A stretch of DNA of 32,000 bases from Synechococcus elongatus PCC 6301 (lineage in GTDB: Bacteria; Cyanobacteriota; Cyanobacteriia; Synechococcales; Synechococcaceae). The stretch is from positions 1,830,001 to 1,862,000 of the forward strand of contig NC_006576.1 in the NCBI RefSeq assembly GCF_000010065.1, given 5' to 3'. The translations under genes were made by a program, and so were the position numbers. Below the pieces are notes generated by a model. That model saw only the letters and a program-made list of their open reading frames with translations. It made no database searches and was not told the DNA's origin. This document shows, piece by piece, positions 1,436 to 29,924 of this stretch (the stretch's first letter is position 1; every line of letters starts with the position of its first letter).

Positions 1436-1476
1436 CTGCTGCGATCGCCACAGAGGAGCGATCGCAGCAGGCTTTT
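1436..1476 (+). terminator. Candidate intrinsic terminator after the methyltransferase gene
   Basis: Perfect 13-bp inverted repeat: CTGCTGCGATCGC (1436-1448) pairs with GCGATCGCAGCAG (1458-1470), with a 9-nt loop. It is followed by GCTTTTA. The T-run is short, so confidence is moderate. Confidence 0.45.
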
Positions 1477-1766
1477 ACAACGAAATAAGTCAGTCAACTT
1501 TGCTGTTCAGCGATAACCAGACGAAGTCACTGCCCAAATTCAAGGTTGGTAGTGATGGCATTGCAGTCTCTAATCTAGTTAGAACGCTGAATTTAGCTGA
1601 CAATCGTCCAAGACCAGGGGCAAGAGCCTCTGGCTCCCCTATCTTGAGACTATCTCAACTGAAACAAGGGCTATCACAGCCAATTTTAGTCAATCTTTGT
1701 GATGCGAAACTGAGAAAAACTGACCAAGAAACTCAAGAGCCAGCATAATTTGATTAACTCTTTTGA

Positions 1767-2588: not shown

Positions 2589-2605
2589 CTTCCTGAAACA
2601 TACCT

Positions 2606-2977: not shown

Positions 2978-3001
2978 CTCTTGGGCTCAAGCTGAAGGTT
3001 C

Positions 3002-4036
3002 TTAGGCGATCGCAGGGGCTGAAGGCTGGCGGAGCCAATCTTGTAAAACCTGACTGGGTGGTTGGGCGTGGGGCCAAGCAAAGGCATGACGGAAAGATGC
3101 CGTTTGGCAGGCTTGTAGTTGCTGAAAGTCAATGACATCAGCAGTCAGTAGGGCTTCATATTCTGCCGGCAGCCGCACATTGTGAAGACCGGCATTGTCG
3201 GTACAGATGACGATATCAACGCCTGCTTCAAAGCAGCGATCGAAGACTGTCCTCAGTGCTGCGATCTCCGTCAGAGTACCGGTTTGAATATAGGTGGTAG
3301 GGCAGACTTCTAGGCATTGCCCCCGTGCCGCTAGCTCTGGCAACAATTCGGGATAGTGCAGCGGAATTTGGATGCCGTGGCCAATCCGCATCAAGTACGG
3401 CAATAGGTCGGGATAGCAGCCATCGCGGGTTTCAAATAGGTGGCCTGTCGTCTTCAGGCCCAGTTCCCGCGCCCAGTTGAAGAGCTCAATGAACTCTGGT
3501 AGCCGCTCTGCGTAGGCGCGATCGCCCCCTGCTACATCGATCGCACAAACTGTCGGCACACAGTCCGCGGCCAGTTGCACCATTGCCCGATTGACTTCGT
3601 AGGGCAAATGGGTGTGTAGGCAGAGGATTTGGGGCATCAGCAAGGGATAGCCCGGCACTTGGCTGGCGGCGGCAACACATTGCACCACTGCGGGCATCAA
3701 GTCCAAACGCTCAGTTTGGGACAGTGTTGCTGGAGTCCGCAGATAGGGGGTGTAGCGCAGTTCCAGATAAGCCAAGTTCTCGAAGGTGTAGGCACCCCGC
3801 ACCAACCGTTGGATGAAGTAGGGCAGCGTGCCAGTCGTTTGAGTTGACTCCACCAACTTGTGAATTTCGAGATATTCCGCCAACGAGGCCTTGGGGGCGG
3901 TGTAGAACTGCTCGAAATCGCCGTAGTGGGCAAAGCGATCGATAATTTCGGACTGCGATCGCTGCAAAAAGCGCCAGAGAATGCGAGGCACAACTGCGCC
4001 GCCCAAGTGGCGATGCAAATCGGCAAAAAGCGCCAT
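3002..4036 (-). CDS. Adenosine/AMP deaminase-family metallohydrolase
   Basis: Start trimmed to the ATG at 4036 (MALFADLHRHLGGAV), giving 344 aa. It carries the HxH metal motif (DLHRHLGG), an internal GHG (RIGHGIQ) and a C-terminal TDN (VICTDNAG), as in the A_deaminase family. Confidence 0.8.
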   Translation of the reverse strand: MALFADLHRHLGGAVVPRILWRFLQRSQSEIIDRFAHYGDFEQFYTAPKASLAEYLEIHKLVESTQTTGTLPYFIQRLVRGAYTFENLAYLELRYTPYLRTPATLSQTERLDLMPAVVQCVAAASQVPGYPLLMPQILCLHTHLPYEVNRAMVQLAADCVPTVCAIDVAGGDRAYAERLPEFIELFNWARELGLKTTGHLFETRDGCYPDLLPYLMRIGHGIQIPLHYPELLPELAARGQCLEVCPTTYIQTGTLTEIAALRTVFDRCFEAGVDIVICTDNAGLHNVRLPAEYEALLTADVIDFQQLQACQTASFRHAFAWPHAQPPSQVLQDWLRQPSAPAIA

Positions 4037-4221
4037 AATCCTGCTCCCATCCCAGGGGCGGCACGCGCCCAATTGTTAAGCTTTGTGAGTCATTCAAGCC
4101 TAACGCAGCCTGATTGGAGCGTCATTTTCGATACGTCGCATTGATCAGGACGGTTTGACAGGCGCCAAAGCGGCGTCGGATAATCCCCTTTTGTGCAAAT
4201 TTCGAGCGCAGTCGAAAGACC

Positions 4222-5556
4222 TTGGCGAACGTAGTCGTAATCGGGGCCCAGTGGGGCGACGAGGGCAAAGGCAAAATCACTGACCTGCTCAGCCGGTCAG
4301 CAGATGTCGTTGTCCGCTATCAGGGGGGCGTCAACGCGGGTCATACCGTGGTGGTGGGCGAGCAAACCCTGAAGCTGCATCTGATCCCCTCAGGCATTCT
4401 TTACCCCGACACCCAATGCATCATTGGTTCGGGCACCGTCATTGACCCCAAGGTCCTTCTGGGCGAGGTCGAGATGCTGGAGCAGCTAGGGATCTCCACC
4501 GATCACCTGCTGATTTCCCAAACCGCCCATGTGACGATGCCCTACCATCGCTTGATCGATCAAGCATCGGAGCAACAACGGGGCAGTCATAAGATCGGCA
4601 CCACCGGCCGGGGCATTGGGCCTACCTATGCCGACAAATCGGAGCGAACCGGCATTCGCATTCTGGACCTGATGGATCCCGAAGGCTTGCGGGAACAGCT
4701 TACTTGGACGATCGCCCAGAAAAACGTCATTCTCGACAAGCTCTACGGCCTACCGCCGCTCGATGCTGAGAGCGTTATCGAAGAATATTCGGGCTATGCA
4801 GAGCGGCTGCGCCCTCACGTCGTCGACAGCTCGTTGACGATCGATGAAGCGTGGCGCAAGCGCAAAAACATTCTGTTTGAAGGCGCGCAAGGTACCCTGC
4901 TCGACCTCGACCACGGCACCTATCCCTACGTCACCTCCTCCAATCCCGTGGCGGGAGGTGCTTGTATTGGCGCGGGCGTTGGCCCCACGATTATTGACCG
5001 TGTGATTGGGGTGGCGAAAGCCTACACGACCCGCGTTGGGGAAGGCCCTTTCCCGACAGAACTCCACGGCGACATCGGCGAATTGCTCTGTCAGCGCGGG
5101 GCTGAATTTGGGACGACCACCGGTCGTCGACGCCGCTGCGGCTGGTTTGATGCGGTGATCGGTCGTTACGCGGTGCGGATTAACGGTATTGACTGTCTGG
5201 CGATCACCAAGCTCGATGTCTTGGATGATCTGGATGAAATTCAGGTCTGTGTTGCTTACGACATCGATGGCGAGCGCTGCGACCATTTCCCCAGTAGTGC
5301 CCGTAGTTTTGCCAACTGCCAGCCGATCTACAAAACGGTGCCGGGTTGGAAGCAATCGACGTCTCACTGCCGTAACTTGGAAGACCTGCCCAAAGCTGCC
5401 CTGGATTATCTGAAGTTCCTGGCGGAATTGATGGAAGTCCCGATCGCGATCGTCTCCTTGGGCGCTAGCCGTGACCAGACGATCATCGTCGAAGACCCCA
5501 TCCATGGGCCGAAGCGTGCTTTGCTCCACACCAACGGCGACAGCAGCGCGAGCTAG
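4222..5556 (+). CDS. purA: Adenylosuccinate synthetase
   Basis: 444-aa ORF with a TTG start. The N-terminus [18 protein letters not shown] (P-loop), [14 protein letters not shown] and TKLDVLD are hallmark PurA motifs. Confidence 0.95.
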
Positions 5557-5631
5557 GCGATCGGCTGCCGGTAAGAGAGACAACAGGCAAGGAGTCAATC
5601 CTCCTTGTCAAAAATCAATTTGAGTAAAATC

Positions 5632-6018
5632 ATGACCCGCCAAAATATTTCCTCCGGTTCCGCCTGGGAGCCTGTGCTGGGCTATTCCCGCGCCGTCAAG
5701 GTCGGACCCTACGTCCATGTCTCTGGCACTACGGCCAGCACCCCGGACGGCGTTGTTGGTCTGGGTGATCCCTACGAGCAAACCAAAGCAGCGCTAAAGA
5801 CGATCGCACAAGCACTGACAGAGGCGGGTGCCCAACTCTCTGATGTAGTGCGGACGCGGCTCTACGTCACGGATATTTCACGCTGGGAAGAAATCGGGAA
5901 AGCCCATGGCGAGGTGTTTGGGGAAATTCGTCCCGCCATGGCGATCGTGGAAGTGAGCCAATTGATCTCGCCGGAATTGCTCGTCGAAATTGGGGCGGAT
6001 GCCTACATCGGCGAATAG
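5632..6018 (+). CDS. RidA/YjgF/TdcF-family protein
   Basis: ATG at 5632 is preferred over the upstream TTG at 5605, giving 128 aa. The sequence ...VHVSGTTA...LSDVVRTRLYVTD...RPAMAIVEVSQL...LVEIGADA is typical of the endoribonuclease L-PSP/RidA fold. Confidence 0.85.
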   Translation: MTRQNISSGSAWEPVLGYSRAVKVGPYVHVSGTTASTPDGVVGLGDPYEQTKAALKTIAQALTEAGAQLSDVVRTRLYVTDISRWEEIGKAHGEVFGEIRPAMAIVEVSQLISPELLVEIGADAYIGE

Positions 6019-6040
6019 CTGCTCTCATCAATTCCCACAG

Positions 6041-6080
6041 CCCCTCAGGTTGCTTAACGCAATGGCCTGAGGGGTTTTTT
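6041..6080 (+). terminator. Intrinsic terminator between convergent genes
   Basis: CCCCTCAGG (6041-6049) pairs with CCTGAGGGG (6066-6074) around a 16-nt loop. TTTTTT follows directly (6075-6080). Confidence 0.65.
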
Positions 6081-6088
6081 GTCATTTT

Positions 6089-6901
6089 CTAGGGCACTGA
6101 CGCTGTGGATGGGGTTGGCAGGTTGTCCAAAAAACTAAGCGGCCGATTCATGGTGGCAGAAAAGCCAAGGATGCCGTGATCGCGATGCTCGTAAATTAAC
6201 TGGCGATCGCGATCGAACAGGAAAGTACCGCCGCGTTGGGTCATGTAGCTGGTATCAGGGACGTAAGTACGCCAATGACCGAGGGATTCCGCCATGTTGC
6301 GGAGGCGTAGCGTTGCCAATTCCATCGGTCGCTGGAAGCCAGAGCCGCCCGCAAGGTTAAAAAAGTTGCCTTTGATGGGTGGTAGCGGTGCAGCCTGTAC
6401 CGTTTCTTCGGCGGCAATGAGTTGGGGTGCACTGCGATCGCCGCGATAGCCCCGAAGCACTTCCGCCAACGTGCCGGGGCTACCAATGCCAGCACACATC
6501 AACAGCAGATTCAGCCAAGCCTTGGCAGCGGGGGAAAAGCCAGGAATTGACAGTTGTAGTCCCGGATAGAGCTCTAGTTCTTGATGCAAGCTAGCTGTGG
6601 GATCAACAAAGAGCTGATCGGCGGGAAAGCCGGTGAACTCGCAGAAGCGCTGGCCTGAGTCACGATCGCCAATGCCGACTGCGCGAATCGTCAGCCCAAG
6701 TTGCTGGATCTGATCCTGTTCTCGCTGCAACCACTGGGCATATTCCAAGCTGTCGAAGTCGCCCAACTGCGGCCAAATCAAGACCAGCAGGCGATCGCTG
6801 CTTTCAGTGCCAGCAAGGACTGGCGCGATCGCCCCATCACTGACCCGTTGACGCTGACAAGCCTGCAAGAGCGGGTAAGGGTTGATGGGTGCTGGAGTCA
6901 T
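6089..6901 (-). CDS. Thioredoxin-fold, peroxiredoxin-like (AhpC/TSA PF13911-like) protein lacking the CxxC cysteines
   Basis: The 340-aa six-frame ORF is trimmed to the ATG at 6901 (MTPAPINPYPLL...), because its upstream part overlaps thiO. Alternative starts are ATG 6931 and TTG 6868. The core LLVLIWPQLGDFDSLEYAQWL matches the position of the GCxxC motif in PRXL2-type proteins. Confidence 0.6.
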   Translation of the reverse strand: MTPAPINPYPLLQACQRQRVSDGAIAPVLAGTESSDRLLVLIWPQLGDFDSLEYAQWLQREQDQIQQLGLTIRAVGIGDRDSGQRFCEFTGFPADQLFVDPTASLHQELELYPGLQLSIPGFSPAAKAWLNLLLMCAGIGSPGTLAEVLRGYRGDRSAPQLIAAEETVQAAPLPPIKGNFFNLAGGSGFQRPMELATLRLRNMAESLGHWRTYVPDTSYMTQRGGTFLFDRDRQLIYEHRDHGILGFSATMNRPLSFLDNLPTPSTASVP

Positions 6902-7976: not shown

Positions 7977-8033
7977 GTCGCTTTCCGTATCCTCAATCTC
8001 CTAGTATGACGGCGGTTCCCAAGAAGTCAGGCA

Positions 8034-8429
8034 ATGGAGATTGCCGTTTTGCGTTTGCGACCGGGTCAGGATCTCAAACAAGCCCTGTGGGATTGGACAC
8101 AGGAACACCAACCCAGTGCGGCTTGCTTGCTTAGTGCGGTCGGCAGTCTGGATGCGGTTTGCCTGCGACTGGCCGGCGGCGATCGCCAATTCCAGCGACA
8201 AGAGCCTCACGAAATTCTGAGTCTGAGCGGCACCTTCTGTCTGGATGGACTGCACCTTCATCTCGCGATCGCGGATGCCACGGGCTAGGTCTGGGGCGGT
8301 CATCTGCTGGACGGTTGCCGTATCTTCACCACAGCAGAACTGGTGCTTGGGATCTTGCCCGACTGGCAGTTTGAGCGCCAACGCGATGCGCAGACGAGAT
8401 ACCCAGAGTTAGAGGCTAAACGTTTATGA
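8034..8429 (+). pseudogene. PPC/DUF296-domain protein gene interrupted by an in-frame TAG (8286-8288)
   Basis: 84 codons (MEIAVLRLRPGQDL...HLHLAIADATG) are followed by TAG. Another 46 in-frame codons (VWGGHLLDGCRIFTTAELVLGILPDWQFERQRDAQTRYPELEAKRL) then run to TGA at 8427-8429. Both halves together reproduce the full DUF296 pattern (HxH...G.v.GGHL...tTaE.v). Confidence 0.7.
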
Positions 8430-8441
8430 AATTTTTAAAAG

Positions 8442-9220
<779 letters not shown>

Positions 9221-9278
9221 CGCCTCCCCTACAGACTTGCGGGGAGGATGCCCTAAATTCGCCGATGGGCAACAGGAC

Positions 9279-9563
9279 CTAAGCTTTACTGGCTCGCGCC
9301 GATCGCAGCATTGCAATCAAGGTCTGGTGCGCGTCTTCGGAGTCCTGTAGCTCGTGGTCGAAGCTAACTTGCAGCGATCGCGATCCCGTGGCTTCCACCA
9401 CATCCAAAACCATGGCTGCTGGCGTAATGCCCGTCAGAGTCGCCGCCGTCGCTTCCGTTGCGCCGCCATAGACTTTGGCATAAACCAAGACCGCATCCGC
9501 ATGGTCTTCATTCATGTGGCGACAGATGCGATCGCTAACTGCTGAAGTGAGTGGATCAGCCAT
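9279..9563 (-). CDS. DUF2470-domain protein (haem-binding HugZ/GluTRBP C-terminal-like)
   Basis: 94-aa ORF. ICRHMNEDHADAVLVYAKVYGG is the characteristic DUF2470 opening motif. Confidence 0.75.
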   Translation of the reverse strand: MADPLTSAVSDRICRHMNEDHADAVLVYAKVYGGATEATAATLTGITPAAMVLDVVEATGSRSLQVSFDHELQDSEDAHQTLIAMLRSARASKA

Positions 9564-9655
9564 CGTTTTTTCCTCTGCTCAGGTCATTTAGAAGCGATCT
9601 TAGACCGGTCACTCGGCTGCTCTGCCTCTAGTCCTAGAAAGAGCTGCAGCGATCG

Positions 9656-9775
9656 CTAGGAAAGAACGTGGGCTTTGAGGAGCAGCGCACTGATCAGGCG
9701 ATAGCCACTGAAGCTGACAAAGCCTAGCAAGACAACAAAGAGAGCGACATTGAAGACATCGCGCAGGCGATCCAT
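9656..9775 (-). CDS. Candidate 39-aa single-pass membrane peptide (unassigned)
   Basis: It runs from the ATG at 9775 to the TAG at 9656-9658 and encodes MDRLRDVFNVALFVVLLGFVSFSGYRLISALLLKAHVLS. It has one hydrophobic helix and lies in an otherwise unexplained 308-bp gap on the same strand as both neighbours. There is no recognisable family, and it is below the ORF-track cutoff. Confidence 0.3.
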   Translation of the reverse strand: MDRLRDVFNVALFVVLLGFVSFSGYRLISALLLKAHVLS

Positions 9776-9871
9776 AGACAAATCCAGCTGAAATGCGCCC
9801 TCACTCTATCAAGCGATCGCGCTCTCACTCGGGTCGAGCAGCAATCCGTTATAAAGCTTGCGCTGAAGCCG

Positions 9872-10918
9872 TTAGCGACTGAGAAGTCCAGCAGGCAGTT
9901 GCATCGTGATGCAATGCAGTGAGCCATGTTGCTCCAGGAGTGGCCGACAGTTGATGCCGATCGCGAGGCGATCGGGGAAAGCAGCGGCGATTGCCGCGAT
10001 CGCCGCCTCATCTGCCGGATCGTTGTAAGTCGGTACTAAGACTGCGCCATTGATGACTAAGTAATTGGCGTAGGTTGTCGGCAAGCGCTGACCATCCGCA
10101 TCGAAGCAGGGTTGCGGCCAAGGCAAGGGAATCAAGTGGTAGGGCTGTCCGTCCGCCGCGCGCAAGGCTTTGAGTTCTGCTTCAAGGGCTGTTAGTTCTG
10201 CCGCATGACTGTCACTGGGATCGTCGCAGGCAACGTAAATCAGCGTGTCATTCGGTGCGATCCGCACCAGCGTGTCGATGTGGGCGTCCGTGTCATCGCC
10301 TTCCAAATGGCCATGCTCCAACCAGAGCAGGCGATCGCCCCCCAGTTGTCGCTGGATGATCTGCGCGATCGCCTCGCGGCTCAAGCCCGGATTACGATTC
10401 GCTTCCAGCAAACACTGACTCGTGGTGAGTAGGGTGCCGCGTCCATCACTTTCGATACTGCCCCCTTCAAAAATCAGCGGCACAGTTTCCAGCGGCGTGG
10501 TGCCAAAAATTCCTTGCTGCCAAAGTCGCCGTGTCACTTGGTTGTCGTGGTTGGCGGCAAACTTTAGGCCCCAGCCATTGAAGCCCCAATCCAGCAGTCG
10601 CAGCCCTGCTGGGGTTTCCACCGTCAGCGGCCCAAAATCGCGGCTCCAAGTGTCATTGGTGGGCAGTTCAACAATCTGAATGCGATCGCAATTCGCAGTG
10701 GTCTGCGCCAGTTGTTCTGCCACGCGATCGGGCTCTGGCGTCACGATCAGCAACTGCTCAAAGCGCGTCACTGCTTCCGCTAGGTCACGGTAGACGCGAT
10801 CGACCTGATCCAACAGCGATCGCCAATCACTGTCCGCATGGGGCCAAGCAATCAAAACACCGTCCTGCGCTTCCCATTCCGCTGGAAAACGGCGATCGCT
10901 CTGTTGCCCCTGACTCAT
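9872..10918 (-). CDS. aguA: Agmatine deiminase (PAD_porph family)
   Basis: Start trimmed to the ATG at 10918 (MSQGQQSDRRFPAEWEAQDGVLIAWPH), giving 348 aa. TWSRDFGP, FEGGSIESDG, DTDAHIDT and the C-terminal catalytic GSLHCITMQ match the agmatine deiminase pattern. Confidence 0.85.
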   Translation of the reverse strand: MSQGQQSDRRFPAEWEAQDGVLIAWPHADSDWRSLLDQVDRVYRDLAEAVTRFEQLLIVTPEPDRVAEQLAQTTANCDRIQIVELPTNDTWSRDFGPLTVETPAGLRLLDWGFNGWGLKFAANHDNQVTRRLWQQGIFGTTPLETVPLIFEGGSIESDGRGTLLTTSQCLLEANRNPGLSREAIAQIIQRQLGGDRLLWLEHGHLEGDDTDAHIDTLVRIAPNDTLIYVACDDPSDSHAAELTALEAELKALRAADGQPYHLIPLPWPQPCFDADGQRLPTTYANYLVINGAVLVPTYNDPADEAAIAAIAAAFPDRLAIGINCRPLLEQHGSLHCITMQLPAGLLSR

Positions 10919-11038
10919 GATTTGACTAGCAAAAAGACCCTTGTTCAGCCTAGCGGCTTCGGTTGTTTGGGTACGGTCGTTCGGTGCGAAATCCCCCCTC
11001 ATCTCGTTCCTAAAACCGAACCATGCTCAAGCGATCGC

Positions 11039-11078
11039 CTCCCTAGAGTGAGTGTGTCGAGAGCAGTCCGTTAGGGAG
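11039..11078 (+). promoter_or_regulatory. Possible SD-sequestering hairpin in the hspA leader (candidate RNA thermometer)
   Basis: CTCCCTA (11039-11045) is complementary to TAGGGAG (11072-11078), with an extra G-U next to it. The right arm contains the only SD-like element (GGGAG), 8 nt before the hspA ATG at 11087. Confidence 0.25.
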
Positions 11079-11086
11079 ACCTCAAA

Positions 11087-11578
11087 ATGGCACTCGTTCG
11101 ATTCAGTCCGCTCTACGAATTTGATCGTGAATTGGGCACCCTCCAACGGCAGATGAGCCGCTTCTTACAGCCGTGGCCTTGGACCGAAGCAGAACTGAAA
11201 GAGTTGAGTTTTGCACCAGCGGTTGAGGTCAAGGAAACGGATGCAGCGATCGAACTTCGGGTTGAGTTGCCAGGGATTGATCCGAAGGATCTCGACCTGC
11301 AAGTCACTGCTGAAGCCGTTGTTCTCAAAGGCGAACGCCGCAGCGAAGACCGGAGCGAAGCTGAAGGTGTGCTGCGCACTGAGTTCCGCTATGGCGCCTT
11401 TGAACGGGTGATTCCATTGCCCGCTCAGGTCAAAAACACCGAAGCACAAGCCGATTATCAAAACGGCATCTTGGTGCTGACGCTACCGAAACGCGACGAA
11501 GAGTTGCACAAAGTCGTCAAGGTCGATCTGGGCCACCTCGCCGCAGCGCCGGTTGCTGCTGAAGCTTGCGAGCGATAG
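11087..11578 (+). CDS. hspA: Small heat-shock protein (alpha-crystallin/Hsp20 family)
   Basis: 163-aa ORF. The block PAVEVKETDAAIELRVELPGIDPKDLDLQVTAEAVVLKGERR...FRYGAFERVIPLP...ADYQNGILVLTLPK is a canonical alpha-crystallin domain. Confidence 0.9.
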   Translation: MALVRFSPLYEFDRELGTLQRQMSRFLQPWPWTEAELKELSFAPAVEVKETDAAIELRVELPGIDPKDLDLQVTAEAVVLKGERRSEDRSEAEGVLRTEFRYGAFERVIPLPAQVKNTEAQADYQNGILVLTLPKRDEELHKVVKVDLGHLAAAPVAAEACER

Positions 11579-11615
11579 CGCCATCCACGTTGAGTCCTGC
11601 AATTCGTCATCTTCT

Positions 11616-11646
11616 GGGGCTTTGGGTTAAAGCCCCAGTTTTTTTG
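11616..11646 (+). terminator. Intrinsic terminator of hspA
   Basis: GGGGCTTT (11616-11623) pairs with AAAGCCCC (11629-11636) around a GGGTT loop. AGTTTTTTTG follows. Confidence 0.7.
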
Positions 11647-11674
11647 TTGGTTTCCCGTCCCGAACTGCCGTAGA

Positions 11675-12868
11675 TTGACCTTGACATCGCAGCAAGTTCA
11701 AGAGGGTGCCGTGCCACTGCTGGAAGGACTGATTGGAGTCGGAATCGCGATCGCCGCGATCGGGGTTGGCCTCGAAGTGCAGTACCAACGGCGTGAGGGC
11801 AACAAACTCGAAGTCACCAACGGTCAGTGGCAGACCGATCGCAGTCCGGGTCGCTTGCAGTTGACCGGCCGGATTGAGCTGATCAACCGCACTCGCAAGC
11901 TGGAAATTATGGTGCCGGAGCTGGTTGCCAAAGCGAAGTTACTGTCCAAGCAAAGTCTGGAAGGGATTCGTTGGCAAACGCGGGTTGTGCCGGAGCACGA
12001 AGATGCGGCAGCCCGTGCCAATGACTACTGGTTTGCCTACATCGTCAAAAAACGCACCACAATTCGTGTCGAACTAGACATTGAAGGGCCAGAAGACGCG
12101 ATCGCAGCCTTGGAATCGGCTTGGCTGCAACTGCGCTACGTCACCTATGGCCCCCAGGGGCGAATTCCGCGCCGTAAACACATCGTCTTGGCGCTGAAAG
12201 AACTGGAACTCGATACCGCGCCAACTTGGCGATCGCTCTCCCAAACTGATCGTCTGCCGATTAAAACCCATCTGCTGACGCCGCAGGACGATCCAGTTGA
12301 GGTCGTCAAACGCTACGTCTTGCCCTACAGTCAGCCCGGCGACCTGCTGGCGATCGGCGAAACACCGCTGGCGATTATGCAGGAGCGCTTCCGTCATCCC
12401 CGCGATATCAAACCCGGCTGGGTGGCGCGCCACGTCTGCTACTACTTCCAACCGACATCCAGCTTGGCGACGGCAGTGGGACTGCAAACGCTGGTCGATG
12501 CGGTCGGACCGTGGCGGGTGTTCGGGGCGTTCCTCGGTGGCGTCTTGCTGCGGTTGGTTGGCAAACGTGGCGGCTTCTACATCCTTGCCGGTGAACAAGC
12601 GCGGCTGATTGATGATGTGACTGGCAGCTTGCCGCCCTACGATCAATTTGTGGTGCTGGGACCACAAGATCCGCAAGCGGTTGTCGATCGAATTGAACGA
12701 GAAACTGGCCTGAAAACAGCGATCGTCGATGTCAATGACCTGAAAGCGGTGAAGATTTTGGCGGCGAGTGCTGGGTTACCAACCGCTGTTCTGGAATCCG
12801 CTTTGCGCGACAATCCGGCTGGCAATGCCGATGAGCAAACGCCGATTGTGTTGGTGCGGCCTCGCTAG
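11675..12868 (+). CDS. Membrane-anchored protein with a CofE-like (F420-0:gamma-glutamyl ligase family) C-terminal domain; function uncertain
   Basis: 397-aa ORF with a TTG start, which is uncertain. It has an N-terminal TM helix (LLEGLIGVGIAIAAIGVGL). The C-terminal half (GDLLAIGETPLAIMQERFRHP...FYILAGEQARLIDDVTG) resembles cyanobacterial proteins annotated as F420-ligase-like. The family call is from memory only. Confidence 0.5.
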   Translation: MTLTSQQVQEGAVPLLEGLIGVGIAIAAIGVGLEVQYQRREGNKLEVTNGQWQTDRSPGRLQLTGRIELINRTRKLEIMVPELVAKAKLLSKQSLEGIRWQTRVVPEHEDAAARANDYWFAYIVKKRTTIRVELDIEGPEDAIAALESAWLQLRYVTYGPQGRIPRRKHIVLALKELELDTAPTWRSLSQTDRLPIKTHLLTPQDDPVEVVKRYVLPYSQPGDLLAIGETPLAIMQERFRHPRDIKPGWVARHVCYYFQPTSSLATAVGLQTLVDAVGPWRVFGAFLGGVLLRLVGKRGGFYILAGEQARLIDDVTGSLPPYDQFVVLGPQDPQAVVDRIERETGLKTAIVDVNDLKAVKILAASAGLPTAVLESALRDNPAGNADEQTPIVLVRPR

Positions 12869-17973: not shown

Positions 17974-19354
17974 GCAGATCGGGCCCCTGCATCGAACCCA
18001 TCAGGGCTGCCCGCAGCGATCGCATACCGATGCCTTTTTTGACACCGGCGGCTTTGACCGCTTGATCGATCAGCCCTTTCGCAACTTCGAGGGTCAGGGC
18101 TTCGCTGGGGAGTGCCTCAAGGATTTGCTGGAGCACTGCTTTACTGCCTGCTTGACCCAGTTGGGCGATCGCATCTTCTTGCAGTTCGATCCCCTGACTG
18201 AAGAAGAGCTGGCTTTGGCCGACGATATCCGTCAAGGTCACGAGGCTGGGACCCAAGAGAGTCGCCAATTCTTCCAGCCAAGCCGCAGGATAGGCTGCTG
18301 TATCGACCCCGGCCTTGCTCCAGAACGGTTGCAGCAGTGCCACCAACTCACTCGCGGATTTCTCCTTGATCACCTGACTGTTGAGCCAGTTGAGTTTGTC
18401 CCAGTCGAATTTGGCACCGGCTTTGTTGACGCGATCGAAGTCAAAGACGGTCGCTGCCTCCGCCAGACTAAAGCGCTCATCCATGCCTTCCACGGGCGAC
18501 CAGCCCAACAGGGTCATGTAGTTGGCGATCGCCTCGGGCAGATAGCCCAAGTTTTGGAAGTCGGAGATGGAGGTGACGCCATCACGCTTCGAGAGTTTGC
18601 GGCCTTCCTTGTTGAGGATCAGTGGCGTGTGCGCAAACTCGGGCACCGCAGCACCCAGCGCTTCGTAGAGCAGGATTTGCTTGGCGGTGTTAGCGATGTG
18701 GTCTTCGCCGCGAATGACGTGGCTGATCGTCATGTCGATGTCATCGACCACGACCGCGAGGTTGTAGAGCGGCTGACCGATCGTGCCAGCGGGACTGCGG
18801 CGGGCAATCACCATGTCGCCCCCGAGGTCACTGCCTTTCCAGACGACGCGATCGCGCACTAAGTCTGTCCAAGCGATTTCGCGATCGTCATCAATGCGGA
18901 AGCGAATCACCGCCTCGCGGCCTTCGGCTTGAAATGCGGCTTCTTGCTCCGGCGTCAGGTCGCGGTGGCGGTTGTCGTAGCGCGGGGCTTCATTGCGGGC
19001 GCGTTGCGACTCGCGCAGGGCTTCCAGTTCGGCTTCGGTGCAGTAGCAGCGATAGGCTTTGCCACTGTCGAGCAATTGCTGCACGGCGGCTTTGTAGAGG
19101 TCGAGCCGCTGGGTTTGGTAGAACGGGCCTTCGTCCCAGTTCAAGCCCAGCCACTGGAGGCCGGTCAGGATGTTGTCGGTGTATTCCGATCGCGATCGCT
19201 CGAGGTCTGTATCTTCGATGCGCAGGATGAACTGGCCCTGATGCCGCCGCGCAAACAACCAGTTGAAGACGGCAGTGCGGGCCGTGCCAATGTGGAGGTT
19301 GCCGGTGGGGCTAGGAGCAATGCGAACGCGAACTGACACAGTGATTTCCAACAA
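17894..19354 (-). CDS. gltX: Glutamyl-tRNA synthetase
   Basis: 486-aa ORF (TTG at 19354; alternative GTG at 19339). It has the HIGH motif [15 protein letters not shown], the KMSKS-type motif KLSKRDG, and [11 protein letters not shown]. Confidence 0.95.
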
Positions 19355-19434
19355 CGGGCTTCAGTTCTCGATCGTACGGTGTTGCGGCAGCTGCTTGTAA
19401 AGTCATCAACAAAAGGACTACCACTAGTAGCCAT

Positions 19435-21180
19435 GCTTTTAAAAATAGCTAAATCGCAACTATTTTATGATACTTTTTCCTCTTCAGGATTGACAGATAT
19501 ATACAATAGTCTCGAAGCAATTTAATTGTGATTGTCTAATTCCTTTTCAATAGCATCAATCAAATAATCAAAATTGTTATTGACATGTTTAAGATACTCT
19601 TCAATCGCTGAAGTCTGAATTACACTCTCATCTGAAGCAATTTCAGAAGCAATACACTTAGCATAGTAATGATGATCAGAAACGTTCTTATATTGAAAAA
19701 ACCATTCAACATCTAAATCATACTTTGACTTAAAAAAGGCCTTAACCGCAGAATGCTCAAAAACCTCTTTTTCCGGAGGCTTATTACCTGGAAAGGAATA
19801 TAAGCCTTCTTTCTCTGAAGGCCCAATATCTGCATCTCTAACAGCAATTGCTTTCTTTCCTGTTTTTTTAAGAATACGTACAGCTTCGCGAACTGCATCT
19901 GTGCTTCCAATAGCATGAATTTCTACTATTTTGAGCAGAGCTTTTCGTTTCATGCGTATAACTTCTATCAATAAAACCTTTGCAAAATTATCTTCGACAC
20001 ATATATCCAGTGATCGCACGTGACCAGAAGACAAGATAGATCGTAATTGACCTGAGGAAATCTTGTTTCTAATATCAACGCCACCCTCATCTCTGATCAT
20101 CAATTTTCTCGACTCAGGAGGTAGAGCATTAACAATCACACTAGAATGAGTTGAAAGTATTATTTGATGATGTCGCCTATTACATACGTCCAGAAGATAC
20201 TTTGCAAATTCATGCTGAGCGCTTTCATGAAGTGAGGTTTCTGGCTCTTCAAGGATAAAAAGACTTTGCTCTGGCGAACTCTCAAGCTTATCTATAGTAT
20301 ATAGAATACGTCCTTCGCCCAAACCCATATTATTTTCTGAGTAAGAATATCCAAGTCTGTAAGCTATACCTACTTCTGACTCTTTACCGTTGTGGGATAC
20401 TCCTTGGAATGCTACATTTTCATATTTATGACCTATGATTCTGGCCATTTTTTTTACAACTTCTGCTTCAATATCTCGTTTTTCAGTAAATTGAAGATTG
20501 ACGCCTGCATAAACACTTAAATCTCTACGTTCTACTTTTGGCAAATAAACGGTAAATCCGATATAGTAACAATACCTTTCAGGCTGTCTTTTATAGCCCG
20601 ACCAAGATGATTTTACTCGGGATACTGTAACTTCCTTAGGCTTTTGGTAATCGTCAGTCTCGTAGAAATAAACTACTTTTGCACTGTCAGATATTGGTTT
20701 TGGATCAGCTGGAGAAACTGGAAAAAAATCCTTAATATAAAGCCTTTTGTAGGTCATAGATTTATCTGGCTTCTTATATGCACAAATTGCTAGTTGACCA
20801 ACAGTACTCTTCCCCGATCCATTAAGCCCAGAAATAGCAGTTATGGGGAATTCAAGTTCAAGATCAGCCGACTGAACTCCTCGAAAGCCCTCAATATGTA
20901 CCTTTCTAAGGCAAGGCCCAAAGTTCTTGTGGCGATTTTTGGAATTGTATTTATTCCTTAATTCTTTAGTTTTGTCACTCATCTTGAAAGCTTGACTAAG
21001 TTAGTGGTTTTTTCAACAATTTTTACAGCTTAAATAATCTTGCTATCAGGTTATGCCTTAGTCTGCTTGGCAGCCTCATATTTGTAGCCAGTTATAGAAA
21101 AGACAGTTTTCAAATTTTAGCATTCTAGACTCTTTTTTGTGAAGCTCCTCTTAAGAAGAAAGTTGGTATATCAATTTCTT
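19435..21180. other. AT-rich, HIP1-free patch B: single-gene insertion
   Basis: GC falls to roughly the upper 30s% by eye. There is no GCGATCGC between about 19197 and 21343. The right edge abuts the SDR stop codon (21179-21181). The left edge lies about 80 nt upstream of gltX. Confidence 0.65.
19522..20982 (-). CDS. ABC/SMC-type ATPase fused to a Toprim-like C-terminal module (OLD-family-like nuclease candidate)
   Basis: 486-aa ORF. It has Walker A GLNGSGKST (aa 52-60), a signature-like MGLGEGR (aa 219-225), Walker B plus catalytic Glu LFILEEPE (aa 241-248) and an H-loop ILSTHS (aa 275-280). The C-terminus then has DICVEDNFAKVLL (Glu330) and IAVRDADIG (Asp383/Asp385), which resemble the Toprim E...DxD signature. 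Confidence 0.75.
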   Translation of the reverse strand: MSDKTKELRNKYNSKNRHKNFGPCLRKVHIEGFRGVQSADLELEFPITAISGLNGSGKSTVGQLAICAYKKPDKSMTYKRLYIKDFFPVSPADPKPISDSAKVVYFYETDDYQKPKEVTVSRVKSSWSGYKRQPERYCYYIGFTVYLPKVERRDLSVYAGVNLQFTEKRDIEAEVVKKMARIIGHKYENVAFQGVSHNGKESEVGIAYRLGYSYSENNMGLGEGRILYTIDKLESSPEQSLFILEEPETSLHESAQHEFAKYLLDVCNRRHHQIILSTHSSVIVNALPPESRKLMIRDEGGVDIRNKISSGQLRSILSSGHVRSLDICVEDNFAKVLLIEVIRMKRKALLKIVEIHAIGSTDAVREAVRILKKTGKKAIAVRDADIGPSEKEGLYSFPGNKPPEKEVFEHSAVKAFFKSKYDLDVEWFFQYKNVSDHHYYAKCIASEIASDESVIQTSAIEEYLKHVNNNFDYLIDAIEKELDNHN

Positions 21181-21836
21181 AGATACGGGTTGCTCGCGCT
21201 AAAGAAAGAACACAGTCAAGAATCGCTAGAAGATCACTCAGGGGAATCGCCTCACCACCTGTCAGATTAGCTGCTGCGAGATCCGCTAACACTTCTGGGG
21301 TACCCACATTTCCCGGATTAATCACCGTGACCCCAATCTGCTGCGATCGCAATTCTTCCCGTAAGGCGTGAACAACTCCCCGCAGCCCAAACTTCGACGC
21401 ACTGTTAGCAACCTCTCTTGCAGGAAAATTATCTCGACCCGAGAGAGCGCCCATAAAAACGATTTTGGGATTATGCGATCGCCGCAGTGCAGGCAGTAAG
21501 ACTTTCACCAAGCGAATCGGCGCAACAAGATTGACCGCAATTACCCGCGCAATATCCTCATCCGAACAGCTTTCAAAGTCATATTGCGGTGTAAAAGCAT
21601 GGGTTTCCCAAGTTCCGCCCATGTACAGCAGTGCATCGAGGCAATCCTCCCCGATCGCTCGAGCTACCGTTTCAACTCCGGCCAACTCCGATAAATCCGC
21701 TTGAATCCATTCCCCCAACTGGAGCCGCTGTCCGCGACACCGCCACAAGGCGATCGCACTGGTTAATAAAATGTTCTGCAACAGCAAGACCAATGCCACG
21801 ACTGGCTCCGGCCACGAGAACTGTCTTAAAAGACAT
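21179..21836 (-). pseudogene. Short-chain dehydrogenase/reductase gene with a +1-nt frameshift at a C5 run (21712-21716)
   Basis: The ATG at 21836 opens MSFKTVLVAGASRGIGLAVAEHFINQCDRLVAVSRTAAPVG, a canonical SDR TGxxxGIG Rossmann start. That frame stops after about 57 codons. The rest of the SDR (GEWIQADLSE...VAPIRLVKVLLPAL...INPGNVGTPE) continues in the frame of the 21179..21898 ORF. The span is 658 nt. Removing one G from the GGGGG run restores a 218-aa ORF. Confidence 0.75.
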
Positions 21837-21904
21837 GGCTGAATGCCCGCCGACTCAGGATTGCAAACCAATCTTGACACCAACACCTTGAAGGTCAATC
21901 AGGA

Positions 21905-26695: not shown

Positions 26696-27865
26696 ATGCA
26701 AAAAAAGTCTAAGTTTTTTCTGGGTTTGTTAGGCGTCATCACCTGTTTTGTCCTGATAGGTAGTTTCTGTTTGCCCTCATTGGCACAAACACAAACTTGG
26801 CGATCGCTTTCCAATGTTGTCTGGGGAAAAGACCTCCCTGCCTTTAGCTACCCATTCAGCAAGACGCCACTTGTGGACTACGACGGTGGCGTGACTAAAC
26901 AAGTGGGAACCTATAACTTTCCTGTTAGCAAAGGAATGGCTGGGGTCTACATGACTCTGAAGCCTGGAGCGATCCGAGAATTACATTGGCATGCCAATGC
27001 TGCAGAGTGGGCCTACGTCATTGAAGGACGAACACGAGTCACACTGACAAATCCAGACGGACAAGTTCAGATCGCCGATGTTGATCAAGGGGGGCTCTGG
27101 TATTTTCCCCGCGGCTGGGGTCATAGTATCGAGGGAATAGGCCCTGGTACTGCCAAGTTTCTGTTGGTTTTTAACGACGGCACTTTCTCAGAAGGAGCGA
27201 CTTTCAGCATCACAGACTGGCTCTCCCACACACCGATTTCTTGGGTTCAGCAAAACTTTGGCTGGAGTCAAGATGAAGTTGAAAAACTTCCCAAAAAACA
27301 AGTTTATATCTCTCGCTATAACCCAGAGGTTAAGCCACTGGATAAAACACAATCTAGAAACCCTAAAGTTTCTAGGATCGTTCTCCCTTATACCCATAAT
27401 CTTTTGGCTGAAAAGCCACGCACAAGTCAGGCTGGTAATACACTCAAGCTGGCAAGTGCTAAAGAGTTTCCTGCGAGCTTCAACATGGCAGGAGCTCTAT
27501 TGCGATTAGAGCCCGGTGCAATGCGCCAATTGCACTGGCATCCGAATGCCGATGAATGGCAATACGTCCTCAATGGATCGATGGATCTAGCCGTTTTTGC
27601 CTCTGAAGGAAAAGCGAGTATGAGCCGTCTACAGAAGGGTGATGTCGGCTACGTTCCTAAAGGCTATGGGCACGCGCTGCGCAATAGCTCTGATCAACCG
27701 CTAGATGTTCTCATTGTCTTTAATGATGGCGACTATCAAAGTATTGATCTCAACGACTGGATTATGAGTAATCCCAATACTGTGCTGGATGATGTCTTTC
27801 AGCTTTCTCCGCAGTTGTTAGATAAGCTGCCTAAAGAAAGTGAGATTCTGATTCCTCGTAGCTAA
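26696..27865 (+). CDS. Exported Mn-bicupin of the oxalate decarboxylase family (OxdC/MncA-like)
   Basis: 389-aa ORF with an N-terminal signal peptide (MQKKSKFFLGLLGVITCFVLIGSFCLPSLA). It has two cupin metal motifs, LHWHANAAEWAYVIEG and LHWHPNADEWQYVLNG. It is collinear, as far as I recall, with B. subtilis OxdC, including FLLVFNDGTFSEGATFSITDW against the OxdC lid region FLLVFDDGSFSENSTFQLTDW. Confidence 0.9.
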   Translation: MQKKSKFFLGLLGVITCFVLIGSFCLPSLAQTQTWRSLSNVVWGKDLPAFSYPFSKTPLVDYDGGVTKQVGTYNFPVSKGMAGVYMTLKPGAIRELHWHANAAEWAYVIEGRTRVTLTNPDGQVQIADVDQGGLWYFPRGWGHSIEGIGPGTAKFLLVFNDGTFSEGATFSITDWLSHTPISWVQQNFGWSQDEVEKLPKKQVYISRYNPEVKPLDKTQSRNPKVSRIVLPYTHNLLAEKPRTSQAGNTLKLASAKEFPASFNMAGALLRLEPGAMRQLHWHPNADEWQYVLNGSMDLAVFASEGKASMSRLQKGDVGYVPKGYGHALRNSSDQPLDVLIVFNDGDYQSIDLNDWIMSNPNTVLDDVFQLSPQLLDKLPKESEILIPRS

Positions 27866-27908
27866 GTGATTGAGCAGGTTGAATGAAGCATTGAACCCAA
27901 AGATCAAA

Positions 27909-29924
27909 ATGTCAAAACAAAAATGGGCCGTTCGTCTAGCTGTTATTGCTCTGGTTTTGGCCTTTTGGCAGGTTTTATCGCTATCATCCCCTGCTCGATC
28001 CCGTGAACTAAAAACGCTCAGCCTTGCTCCAGTTTGTTCAGTCAAACTGCAAGATCCTAAAGTCACGTGGCAACTGCCAGAAGACGTCGAAGGAGGCTTG
28101 TTACAGAAAAACTTTAATGTTGTTCAGCGAGCTGTGGATCTCTTTGCTTGGCAAGAGTTTATTGCTCTAAATTGGCCTGCAAAGGTAGGCGATCGCGGTC
28201 AACCGGATATTGCAGCAATCCTTGCGAAGGCTGGCCCTCGCGTTTGGGAGACTTGGAAAGAAGCCAGCGAAGTCTACCTGCCCAATAGCGCACTCCCTCA
28301 AGCCTGGAATCGCGGGCCAGCTCTGCCTGATGAAGTGGCCCCATCTGGAGCAACAAAGGTTCTCTTTAGGACTAGTAAGGTTGACGAGGTGTTGAGTGAT
28401 CAATTCCAACCAACTAAAGCTGATGGTGCTTTGCCTGGAACTTTAACGGATCAAAGAGGAAATCTTGTTCGCTACGAGATTCGTATGAACAAGACTCTAT
28501 TTGATTATGTTGTTGACAACAAACTCTATCAGGCAGAACAGCAGGCGAACTTCCCTAATCTCTCTGCTCCGGTAGGATCGATTCTTCTCAAAGCAGCTTG
28601 GCGAGAAGTCTTGCCGAAAGAGCGCGATCGCTTCTATACAGTGCCAGCCTACGTGAAAGATATCGAGGGTGATCGCTACCAAGAAAAGCTCATGGGTTTG
28701 GTAGGCTTTCATCTCATGACGAAGACGGCCAGTGCTCCCCAGTGGATTTGGAGTACCTATGAACAGATCGATAACGTGGAGGGTTTGCATCCTTCCTTCT
28801 TTAACCCTGATTGCCCCAACTGCCTCAAAAATCAGCAAACGCAGCCACAAGTACCCAATCAAATTACTCGTGAAACTCCTATCCCTGCGGTTGACCCTGA
28901 CTGCAGTCAAAAATCAGTCGCGATCGATAACATTGCTGCCCTGAACCGAGCCATGCAAAAGGGTCTAGGTGATTCAGTTTGGCGGCACTATCAGTTGATT
29001 AATACGCAATGGCCTGTCCCTTCACCGCAACCCTCTAGCCCTCCAACCGTCTTTAAGGTATTGCCGCCTATTTTGGCAAACACAACGATGGAGAGCTATA
29101 TCCAGAAAAGTTCCTCTTGCATGGGTTGCCATGCGATCGCTCGAACGACTAATACGCAGCAATATCGATCTGCAGATTTTAGTTTTACCTTTGCTGAAGC
29201 ACGGCCAGTCCTCAAAAACCCTCAAATTATTGCTCCTCCTAAGTCTCCCAACACAAAATGGGATCGGGAGAACTGGAATAGCATTTTGCGAGGCTATCTA
29301 ATTGCGAATAAAACCTATGAAACACTGCCCCAGTATGTTCCTCAGGCGAAACTTCACTGTGCTAGCTGCCATCTCAATGTTGGGGCAAATCCTACGGCCT
29401 CCTCTTGGTTTGGGATGATCAAAAAGTATCAATATCCAGAAACAGATGATTTGCAGAAGAGAATTAATTCCTGCTTTGAGCATAGCCTCAACGGCTTGCC
29501 GCTACCGTTGGAGAAATATAATCCAGAAGCTCAAGCTCTGATTACATATATGCAGTGGCTAGATCAGCAAGCTGCTCAGTCTAAAATTACGCTGCCTAAA
29601 ACAGCTTATCCAGATATTCAGAAGCTCGCTGGAAATCCAAAGCAGGGTCAAGAAATTTTTCAGCAGAAGTGTGCGTTTTGTCATGAGTTGAATGGTGCAG
29701 GCCGCTATGGAAGTAACACCTACTATCGACCTGCGCTGTGGGGTGATCAATCCTTTAATCGCTTGGCTGGGTTAGCACAGCCGGAGACTTTGGCAAAATT
29801 CCTGAAGTCGAATATGCCCTATCAGTTTGGGGGAAACTTGACAGATCAGGAAGCCTGGGATTTAGCCACTTTTATCGATCGTCAGCCTCGCCCACAAGGC
29901 CCCTACAAAGCGCCGAAGACTTAA
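27909..29924 (+). CDS. Membrane-anchored/exported tri-haem cytochrome c: unknown N-terminal domain + TsdA-like di-haem C-terminal module
   Basis: ATG at 27909 (an upstream TTG at 27870 is possible), giving 671 aa, 43 nt after the bicupin stop. It has an N-terminal hydrophobic anchor (WAVRLAVIALVLAFWQVL). There are three CxxCH motifs: CMGCH (29118-29132), CASCH (29358-29372) and CAFCH (29670-29684). The last ~250 aa match the thiosulfate dehydrogenase TsdA pattern (CASCHL..G...RINSCFEHSLNG; CAFCH..NGAG...PALWGDQSFN..AG...NMPY...LTDQEAWDLATFI). Confidence 0.85.
   Translation: MSKQKWAVRLAVIALVLAFWQVLSLSSPARSRELKTLSLAPVCSVKLQDPKVTWQLPEDVEGGLLQKNFNVVQRAVDLFAWQEFIALNWPAKVGDRGQPDIAAILAKAGPRVWETWKEASEVYLPNSALPQAWNRGPALPDEVAPSGATKVLFRTSKVDEVLSDQFQPTKADGALPGTLTDQRGNLVRYEIRMNKTLFDYVVDNKLYQAEQQANFPNLSAPVGSILLKAAWREVLPKERDRFYTVPAYVKDIEGDRYQEKLMGLVGFHLMTKTASAPQWIWSTYEQIDNVEGLHPSFFNPDCPNCLKNQQTQPQVPNQITRETPIPAVDPDCSQKSVAIDNIAALNRAMQKGLGDSVWRHYQLINTQWPVPSPQPSSPPTVFKVLPPILANTTMESYIQKSSSCMGCHAIARTTNTQQYRSADFSFTFAEARPVLKNPQIIAPPKSPNTKWDRENWNSILRGYLIANKTYETLPQYVPQAKLHCASCHLNVGANPTASSWFGMIKKYQYPETDDLQKRINSCFEHSLNGLPLPLEKYNPEAQALITYMQWLDQQAAQSKITLPKTAYPDIQKLAGNPKQGQEIFQQKCAFCHELNGAGRYGSNTYYRPALWGDQSFNRLAGLAQPETLAKFLKSNMPYQFGGNLTDQEAWDLATFIDRQPRPQGPYKAPKT

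Follow-up and report, generated by a model that had tools for sequence, protein, structure and literature searches.

The window analyzed here is a 32,000-nucleotide stretch of the Synechococcus elongatus PCC 6301 chromosome (RefSeq contig NC_006576.1, positions 1,830,001 to 1,862,000), and the gene under study occupies 19522..20982 on its minus strand, next to gltX. In agreement with an earlier sequence-only reading of this DNA, which was made without database searches, the gene is an uninterrupted open reading frame (ORF) with an ATG start and a stop codon at 19522-19524, encoding 486 amino acids (aa). Sequence and profile comparisons indicate that its product is a new member of HEC-04, a described one-gene anti-phage family, and not a new class. 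We put a probability of roughly 0.8 on the reading that it is a stand-alone HEC-04-family anti-phage protein of an OLD-like branch, carried by a horizontally acquired single-gene insert and built around an ATPase-gated Toprim site. The features of the gene are as follows.

19522..20982, minus strand: coding sequence of the predicted HEC-04-family ABC ATPase-Toprim protein, 486 aa (ORF list, PADLOC, homolog alignment)
20083..20919, minus strand: ABC ATPase domain, ~residues 22-300 (Pfam, profile matches, invariant motifs, structure model)
20806-20829, minus strand: Walker A GLNGSGKS, residues 52-59, with the K58 codon at 20809-20811 (pattern search of the translation)
20308-20334, minus strand: signature-like NNMGLGEGR, of which MGLGEGR is residues 219-225 (pattern search of the translation)
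20245-20262, minus strand: Walker B LFILEE, residues 241-246 (LEEPE 244-248; E245/E246) (pattern search of the translation)
20143-20154, minus strand: H-loop STHS, residues 277-280, with H279 (pattern search of the translation)
19783..20025, minus strand: predicted Toprim domain core, ~residues 320-400 (hhalign, HEC-04 alignment, structure model, Foldseek)
19993-19995, minus strand: E330 codon, in CVED (residues 328-331), E330/D331 following strand 1 (sequence read directly)
19828-19836, minus strand: DAD codons, in RDADIG (residues 382-387), D383-A-D385 following strand 3 (sequence read directly)
19525..19776, minus strand: C-terminal helical extension, residues 403-486, with conserved E404, H437/H438, and E452 (structure model, conservation)

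The 486-residue protein and the HEC-04 family

HEC-04 was the dominant PADLOC match to the protein (176.6 bits, E value 1.8e-52), aligning residues 10-413 with positions 12-406 of the 494-position profile, a coverage of 83% for the protein and 80% for the profile. All other PADLOC models scored far lower: AriA reached 85 bits over the ATPase part only, the retron I-B ATPase-Toprim model 63.8 bits over residues 239-459, and NsnB, GajA, Old, and PtuA were weaker matches as well, the Old, GajA, and retron models falling at 36-64 bits. When the C-terminal 189 residues were searched alone, HEC-04 was the sole PADLOC match, at profile positions 297-487 of 494. The experimentally tested HEC-04 protein is that of E. 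coli MOD1-EC5853 (WP_044502283.1, 490 aa; Payne et al. 2024, bioRxiv 10.1101/2024.01.29.577857), which scores 5.2e-53 against its authors' HEC-04 model at coverages of 0.80/0.83 (supplementary table 2, Payne et al. 2024). BLASTP aligned it with residues 15-402 of the window protein at 29% identity (E value 3e-40), pairing K58 with K62, E330 with E319, and D383/D385 with D375/D377; the Toprim motifs in the HEC-04 alignment read FVEDEFAK and IIDGD. Because the window protein matches the profile as strongly as the tested protein does and the catalytic residues align, we assign it to HEC-04.

Proteins of this family are single-gene ABC ATPase-TOPRIM proteins that were discovered embedded in Hma systems. 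The tested member protects E. coli against coliphages, T4 and T5 among them, loses its defense activity upon K62A or E319A/D375A/D377A substitution, and is toxic when induced (bioRxiv 10.1101/2024.01.29.577857). The IbfA paper gives the HEC-04 range as T4 and T5, not T7 or lambda (PMC12111858). IbfA of IncI plasmids, a PADLOC HEC-04 homolog, acts by abortive infection of a P22-like phage (PMC12111858). The window protein resembles HEC-04 (PDLC04149) in being the product of a single gene, in its ABC ATPase and C-terminal Toprim domains, in its length (486 versus 490 aa), and in the spacing from the Toprim glutamate to the DxD motif (53 versus 56 residues). It differs in its 29% identity and in belonging to a tight clade of 482-486-aa proteins (58-76% identity); its gene also lies outside any Hma system, in a cyanobacterial host, where phage resistance would follow by homology. 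With IbfA (R64, pUA1135) it shares a two-domain ATPase-TOPRIM architecture encoded by a single gene, which in IbfA gives abortive-type interference with unrelated phages (PMC12111858); IbfA, in contrast, is plasmid-borne and ~518 aa long, and the window protein is chromosomal. The enterobacterial plasmid relatives that we recovered, not confirmed as IbfA itself, are 22-24% identical to the window protein and score 111 bits on the HEC-04 model. The HEC-04 match supports the candidate anti-phage role that the sequence-only reading had proposed. Its further suggestion of a possibly undescribed subclass, offered on the understanding that the protein belonged to no characterized family, does not stand, since the match to HEC-04 is full length.

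Pfam models recognized only generic ABC-type ATPase families in the whole protein (AAA_15, AAA_21, AAA_23, and SMC_N), and neither NCBIfam nor Pfam returned a Toprim, OLD-like_TOPRIM, or DUF4435 match to it. The C-terminal 189 aa alone matched no Pfam family, and OLD-like_TOPRIM (PF20469) matched neither the whole protein nor the C-terminal domain even at E values up to 10. Of the Pfam families that the sequence-only reading had named for checking, AAA_15 and AAA_21 were found, and OLD-like_TOPRIM and DUF4435 were not. Its proposed resemblance to DUF4435 modules is not supported, with no DUF4435 or AriB match to the whole protein or to the C-terminal domain.

Because Pfam gave no Toprim match, we relied on profile-profile and fold comparison. 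A family profile of 87 members was compared with P2 Old by hhalign and with the Protein Data Bank (PDB) by profile search. The hhalign comparison gave 97.1% probability (E value 7e-11) over family residues 220-391 and paired E330 with Old E398 (LVEGKTE) and D383-A-D385 with Old D453-C-D455. The best PDB sequence was the Thermus scotoductus OLD protein (TsOLD; 6P74, E value 1.6e-24), again with the DxD motif aligned, and the same search aligned GajA through the Toprim region. Pfam OLD-like_TOPRIM is reached by 5 of the 87 family members. Profile matches to the ATPase part included TsOLD, PtuA, AriA, Rad50, and SMC heads. The AlphaFold2 model has a mean predicted local distance difference test score (pLDDT) of 72, rising to 80-96 from ~residue 260. 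Its ATPase part consists of a beta-hairpin, the P-loop, and a helix, followed by the Walker B strand at 241-245. The Toprim core is modeled as beta(325-329)-alpha-beta(353-357)-alpha-beta(378-382)-beta(394-396) at pLDDT 80-96, and the C-terminal extension as helices between 403 and 483 at pLDDT ~90. Among the best Foldseek matches of the model were full-length TsOLD, numerous chains of GajA, and the OLD effector of retron Eco8. These profile and model data indicate that the C-terminus is a genuine Toprim domain, though a divergent one. The fusion of an ABC ATPase to a Toprim-like tail on the OLD plan, as well as the assignment of E330, D383, and D385, had been proposed from the letters alone and is borne out by the hhalign and Foldseek comparisons.

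The motifs lie at the residues where they had been read, and they are conserved in homologs. Across 31 homologs (58-76% identity), G52, N54, G55, G57, K58, G220, G222-R225, E245, E246, H279, E330, D331, D383, and D385 are invariant. Across all 87 sequences, which extend down to 22% identity, N54, K58, T60, G220, G222, E223, E246, H252, H279, E330, D331, D383, and E404 are invariant, and D385 and H438 are kept in at least 90%. By these alignments the motifs of the protein are under selection and not the product of chance.

The same alignments bear on the reading frame. Homologs of 482-484 aa cover 98-100% of the protein and align from residue 1 on, and because the N-terminus is included, we consider the 486-aa start to be correct. 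The GenBank model for S. elongatus PCC 7942 = FACHB-805 is 411 aa long and begins at M76, and therefore lacks the Walker A P-loop; independent S. elongatus assemblies call the 486-aa product. A practical gain of this work is that the GenBank model should be extended to 486 aa. Neither the exact 486-aa nor the exact 411-aa product of the window allele was on record as a called gene in an exact-sequence look-up. In PCC 7942, gltX is Synpcc7942_2393; as the studied gene adjoins it, gene order would make its locus tag Synpcc7942_2392. In the indexed literature on the locus we found no paper discussing the gene, and the paper on SeAgo and random barcode transposon sequencing (RB-TnSeq) makes no mention of it.

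The low-GC insert and the homolog neighborhoods

The gene sits in a compositionally distinct insert, bounded on one side by the start of gltX (19339/19354) and on the other by the stop codon of a dehydrogenase-like gene (21179). The insert and its signal-like sites are as follows.

19400..21178, no strand: low-GC single-gene insert, ~1.8 kb (GC steps, GC3, HIP1 gap)
21114..21143, minus strand: promoter-like site TTCACA-18-TAAAAT (with TG), ~130 nucleotides upstream of the ATG (consensus scan, 10/12, pattern match only)
19416..19432, minus strand: terminator-like hairpin, ~90 nucleotides past the stop codon (consensus scan, pattern match only)
19467-19496, minus strand: promoter-like site CTGTCA-18-TATCAT in the low-GC insert tail, just upstream of gltX (pattern)

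In 50-nucleotide steps, GC content is 0.54-0.60 outside the insert and 0.24-0.46 from ~19400 to ~21200-21230, and the insert as a whole is 37% GC compared with ~58% for the genome. The gene itself has a GC content of 0.37 and a third-codon-position GC content (GC3) of 0.26, compared with GC3 values of 0.63-0.72 for gltX and the oxoprolinase gene. The window contains 99 copies of the cyanobacterial HIP1 palindrome GCGATCGC (one per ~323 bp), compared with 1.25 expected by chance, but none between 19199 and 21343. This gap is supportive and not decisive, because a similarly long gap occurs in a stretch of normal GC content at 3,962-6,203. The HIP1 count, together with a 100% match to an S. elongatus PCC 7942 protein, confirms the cyanobacterial host suggested by the sequence-only reading.

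Only one other ORF between 19355 and 21178 reaches 60 aa. It is 67 aa long (19713..19916) and lies within the gene in a different frame, so the earlier statement that the island holds no second ORF of that size is correct in substance. Rfam found no RNA family in 19250-21350, and a search of the insert borders revealed no direct or inverted flanking repeats, tRNA, or integrase. The noncoding flanks of the insert have no similarity to any homolog locus; similarity is confined to the coding region. All S. elongatus contigs retrieved via identical GltX contain the insert, two of them 99.95% identical over 6 kb, and no insert-free site was present among the contigs found by exact GltX sequence. 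Composition and sequence comparison indicate that the gene entered the S. elongatus chromosome horizontally, as a single-gene insert. Essential gltX may be transcribed from the inserted DNA or by read-through.

We gathered the homologs in two ways, by exact-protein look-ups and by scanning species-representative genomes (23 loci) for SYSENNMG and GEGR[IV]LYT[VI], both of which occur in the window protein. The closest relatives (58-76% identity) are proteobacterial. Named close relatives belong to Gamma- and Betaproteobacteria, Desulfobacterota, Geobacter, and Bacteroidota, and the 482-486-aa clade occurs mainly in Gamma- and Betaproteobacteria, Desulfobacterota, and Bacteroidota. No cyanobacterial relative appeared among the named close relatives or the 23 species-level loci, in a scan that did not return S. 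elongatus itself, whose representative genome may be masked here or lack the gene. The wider family is large: 728 clusters (90% identity) pass an E value of 1e-3 among the candidates scored, and in an exhaustive 50%-identity library 125 clusters pass 1e-30 and 958 pass 1e-10.

We clustered all ORFs within +/-5 kb of the homolog in 30 nonredundant loci and found no conserved partner gene, the sole neighbor cluster present in at least 3 loci being an integrase. With no partner in the insert either, the stand-alone context noted from the sequence holds. In Klebsiella, the homolog (10001-11452 of the locus) lies at the end of a satellite-like element encoding an integrase, AlpA, a putative AbiC, HicB, HEPN, a primase-like AAA_25 protein, and a protease-capsid fusion, an arrangement that looks like accessory defense cargo of a phage satellite. 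In Aeromonas, the homolog occupies an integrase-bounded island. ThsB-TIR genes lie near the Pseudomonas homolog, and ThsA/ThsB (Thoeris) near that of Paraperlucidibaca. Among 126 neighbor ORFs from 20 further loci, we obtained strong PADLOC matches to type I, IIG, III, and IV restriction components, as well as to PbeA, MADS mad2, DISARM DrmMII, and MzaA, and Pfam matches to NERD and phage integrases. These neighborhoods agree with the context in which HEC-04 was discovered.

Several observations stand beside these. One Klebsiella element directly adjoins lambda-like phage tail genes. The Aeromonas homolog is followed, 13-79 bp downstream on the same strand (11468-12274 of the locus), by a DUF3427/weak-HNH gene; we considered this gene as a conserved partner and rejected it, as it occurs in one lineage only, and it is probably separate cargo. 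The closest plasmid-borne relative, from Acidiphilium multivorum (51% identity; 8001-10446), is split by an IS630 transposase and adjoins a MobF relaxase on a conjugative plasmid, an instance of both a mobile vehicle for the clade and gene decay.

Within the window, the remaining neighbors of the insert include Na+/H+ exchanger and oxoprolinase genes. The database start of GltX is the GTG at 19339 (481 aa), not the TTG at 19354. The short-chain dehydrogenase gene beside the insert is split over two frames on the minus strand (21179-21898 and 21672-21836): the Rossmann motif VLVAGASRGIG of the N-terminus (adh_short profile 1-36) is found in a 54-aa ORF, and adh_short 53-185 in a 239-aa ORF. The split sequence recurs, without gaps, in two independent assemblies and therefore looks like a real frameshift or a pseudogene. 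A second lower-GC stretch at ~1500-3000 (0.44-0.45) holds an SPFH/Band_7 gene (1767-2588, plus strand) and a bacterial PH-domain gene (2606-2977, minus strand), coincides with a 1.5-kb HIP1 gap (1465-3006), and may be another acquired islet. A bicupin gene (26696-27865) and a gene whose 684-aa product has a cytochrome c domain at its C-terminus (27870-29924) have a GC content of 0.47 and few HIP1 sites; the genes around them have a GC content of 0.56-0.60.

OLD nucleases and other ATPase-Toprim systems

Class 1 OLD proteins, such as P2 Old (586 aa) and TsOLD (528 aa), likewise stand alone and join an N-terminal ABC ATPase to a C-terminal Toprim domain with the E...DxD residues. They are defined as single genes, and in Old both the ATPase and the Toprim residues are required in vivo (PMC10568477). 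The sequence-only reading, in holding that systems of this architecture normally come with a partner, had overlooked them. It was right that the protein is shorter than P2 Old and GajA (chains of 575-598 aa), and largely right that the interdomain dimerization region must be reduced, since the interval from Walker A to Walker B accounts for 75 of the 100 residues by which P2 Old is longer. The spacings, in residues, are as follows.

N-terminus to Walker A lysine: P2 Old 37, window protein 58 (+21)
Walker A to Walker B: P2 Old 263, window protein 188 (-75)
Walker B to Toprim glutamate: P2 Old 98, window protein 84 (-14)
Toprim glutamate to DxD: P2 Old 55, window protein 53 (-2; HEC-04, 56)
DxD to C-terminus: P2 Old 131, window protein 101 (-30)

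Relative to class 1 OLD, the window protein has an extra N-terminal segment of ~24 residues, and its ATPase insert, which in OLD is the helical dimerization domain, is ~75 residues shorter. AlphaFold2 models the Walker A-Walker B insert as mostly strands with one helix, with pLDDT <50 for much of it; the protein probably lacks the OLD dimerization domain. The first Toprim motif is VED(N)FAK instead of the VEGKTE of Old, so that K400 and E402 of the Old catalytic pocket (bioRxiv 10.64898/2026.07.10.737580 for the pocket) have no counterpart; D331 is invariant and family specific. Pfam OLD-like_TOPRIM (PF20469), a criterion for class 1 OLD, does not match the window protein. Shared with class 1 OLD are the ABC ATPase, the Toprim E/DxD residues, and a single gene without a helicase, reverse transcriptase, or nuclease partner. 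The window protein is OLD-like by fold and context, and class 1 in the genetic sense.

These data also allow us to weigh the proposal that the gene encodes an ordinary class 1 OLD nuclease of the P2 Old/Thermus OLD type, that is, an autoinhibited tetramer that senses DNA ends or hairpins and cleaves tRNA anticodon arms. TsOLD is the best solved-structure match by both profile and fold, hhalign connects the family with P2 Old (97% probability), class 1 is defined by its single-gene context, and P2 OLD itself has been shown to be a tRNase under a tetramer-to-dimer switch (bioRxiv 10.64898/2026.07.10.737580). Against this, the stretch that holds the OLD lock measures 188 residues rather than 263 and is mostly beta-strand, with one helix, in a low-confidence model; the pocket reads VED(N)FAK without K400 or E402; OLD-like_TOPRIM is unmatched; and the Old, GajA, and retron models score 36-64 bits versus 177 for HEC-04. 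We regard an ordinary class 1 OLD nuclease as unlikely.

GajA, retron I-B (Eco8), PARIS AriA, and Septu PtuA belong to the same ABC ATPase superfamily branch and are structural neighbors of the window protein, and GajA, Eco8, and AriB share a Toprim nuclease with it. Their systems, however, require partners that are absent here: the GajB helicase, a reverse transcriptase with its noncoding RNA, the separate AriB, and the PtuB HNH protein, respectively. We rejected membership of Gabija, given that there is no ORF for the UvrD/PcrA-like helicase GajB in the insert or flanks and no conserved neighbor in the homolog loci. PARIS, including its fused form, was rejected for want of any AriB/DUF4435 signal in the C-terminal domain (PADLOC, Pfam), and retron type I-B for want of a reverse transcriptase ORF or an Rfam match at E values up to 1 in 19250-21350. 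Septu was rejected as well: the insert encodes no PtuB HNH protein, and a DUF3427/weak-HNH gene follows only the Aeromonas homolog.

Another proposal is that the gene is what remains of such a multigene system, either fused or orphaned (PARIS, Gabija, Septu, retron I-B, or a cassette embedded in Hma), whose partner was lost during transfer, leaving it inert in S. elongatus. The ATPase part also matches AriA (85 bits), NsnB, GajA, and PtuA, the C-terminal half matches the retron I-B model (64 bits), HEC-04 was first found inside Hma systems, and the Aeromonas homolog has its downstream DUF3427/HNH gene. Yet the 30 loci have no conserved neighbor, the tested HEC-04 works as a single gene, and the insert carries no AriB/DUF4435, helicase, HNH, or reverse transcriptase ORF and no Rfam RNA; moreover, the ORF is intact, with all catalytic residues kept, and it is present in every S. 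elongatus assembly sampled. We consider decay from a partnered system to be very improbable. Least credible of all is a housekeeping role in DNA repair, replication control, or chromosome maintenance: ABC ATPase-Toprim proteins do act in DNA repair and replication control (e.g., an archaeal OLD homolog cited in bioRxiv 10.64898/2026.07.10.737580), the IbfA authors raise nondefense host benefits for chromosomal homologs (PMC12111858), and the gene sits amid housekeeping genes, but its patchy cross-phylum distribution, its unameliorated composition (GC3 0.26), and the presence of homologs in integrase islands and satellites beside restriction and other defense genes lead us to regard it as accessory defense cargo and not a core function.

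Our preferred reading, a horizontally acquired HEC-04-family defense protein, has its own difficulties. Its Toprim domain goes unrecognized by every Pfam model. The structure model is poor in the ATPase inserts (pLDDT <50 at residues 55-94, 123-161, and 200-221) and hence uninformative about the sensor surface or the oligomer. The S. elongatus gene has no other defense genes nearby, adjoining gltX, a dehydrogenase pseudogene, and an oxoprolinase gene instead, and the defense content of the homolog neighborhoods is a qualitative observation. At 29% identity to the tested HEC-04 and 22-24% to enterobacterial plasmid homologs, specificity and even substrate may differ, and we infer the defense role of the window protein and of the 482-486-aa clade from sequence. 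Finally, codon 221 (window 20320), in the signature-like MGLGEGR, encodes Leu (TTG) in the window allele and Phe (TTT) in two other S. elongatus assemblies, and the residue is Phe in all 30 close homologs; L221 could be a strain-specific, possibly attenuating substitution.

A possible mechanism and its bearing on the family

Analogy with characterized relatives suggests a mode of action. The N-terminal ABC ATPase would act as both sensor and switch, for which nucleotide binding via K58 would be needed, and the family-specific ATPase inserts might recognize an infection cue, for instance a phage-encoded protein or phage nucleic acid in an aberrant or replicating structural form. Activation would then free a metal-dependent C-terminal Toprim site (E330/D331, D383/D385) to cut nucleic acid. 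Cutting would stop phage production and probably host growth too, i.e., abortive infection.

Characterized OLD proteins offer two kinds of precedent for the target. TsOLD, BpOLD, and GajA cut DNA in vitro (PMC10568477). P2 OLD, according to a July 2026 preprint, forms an autoinhibited tetramer. When it senses DNA ends or origin hairpins, the tetramer comes apart and the protein excises tRNA anticodon arms; cleavage of double-stranded DNA was not detected (bioRxiv 10.64898/2026.07.10.737580). AriB is a tRNase as well. From such analogies we infer the activity of the protein in S. elongatus, its trigger, its oligomeric switch, and its substrate; between DNA and tRNA as the class of target, we would put the odds at roughly even.

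A bolder extension of the HEC-04 reading, which we entertain as a doubtful but real possibility, is that the 482-486-aa clade forms a distinct HEC-04 branch. In its members, the helical dimerization lock of OLD would be replaced by a short, beta-rich sensor insert, the Toprim pocket would be of the VED type, and the trigger and substrate (e.g., tRNA and not DNA) would be unlike those of P2 OLD and of the tested E. coli HEC-04. As S. elongatus is naturally competent, the protein could also restrict the entry of plasmids or transforming DNA there. If this were true, the clean insertion directly upstream of essential gltX, which has no integrase, repeats, or tRNA, would represent cross-phylum capture of a defense gene by natural transformation.

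Because the family, its architecture, and its single-gene action are already published, nothing here will surprise a specialist. What is mildly new is the cyanobacterial host, the clean cross-phylum single-gene insertion upstream of gltX, and a tight clade that has 29% identity to the tested protein. A one-gene defense family known so far from Enterobacteria and plasmids gains a cyanobacterial member that is fixed in the chromosome, and the host is a genetically tractable model strain. Work on this protein could help inform two questions in the OLD field, namely, whether stand-alone OLD-type proteins provide broad defense and whether their Toprim domains cut DNA or tRNA.

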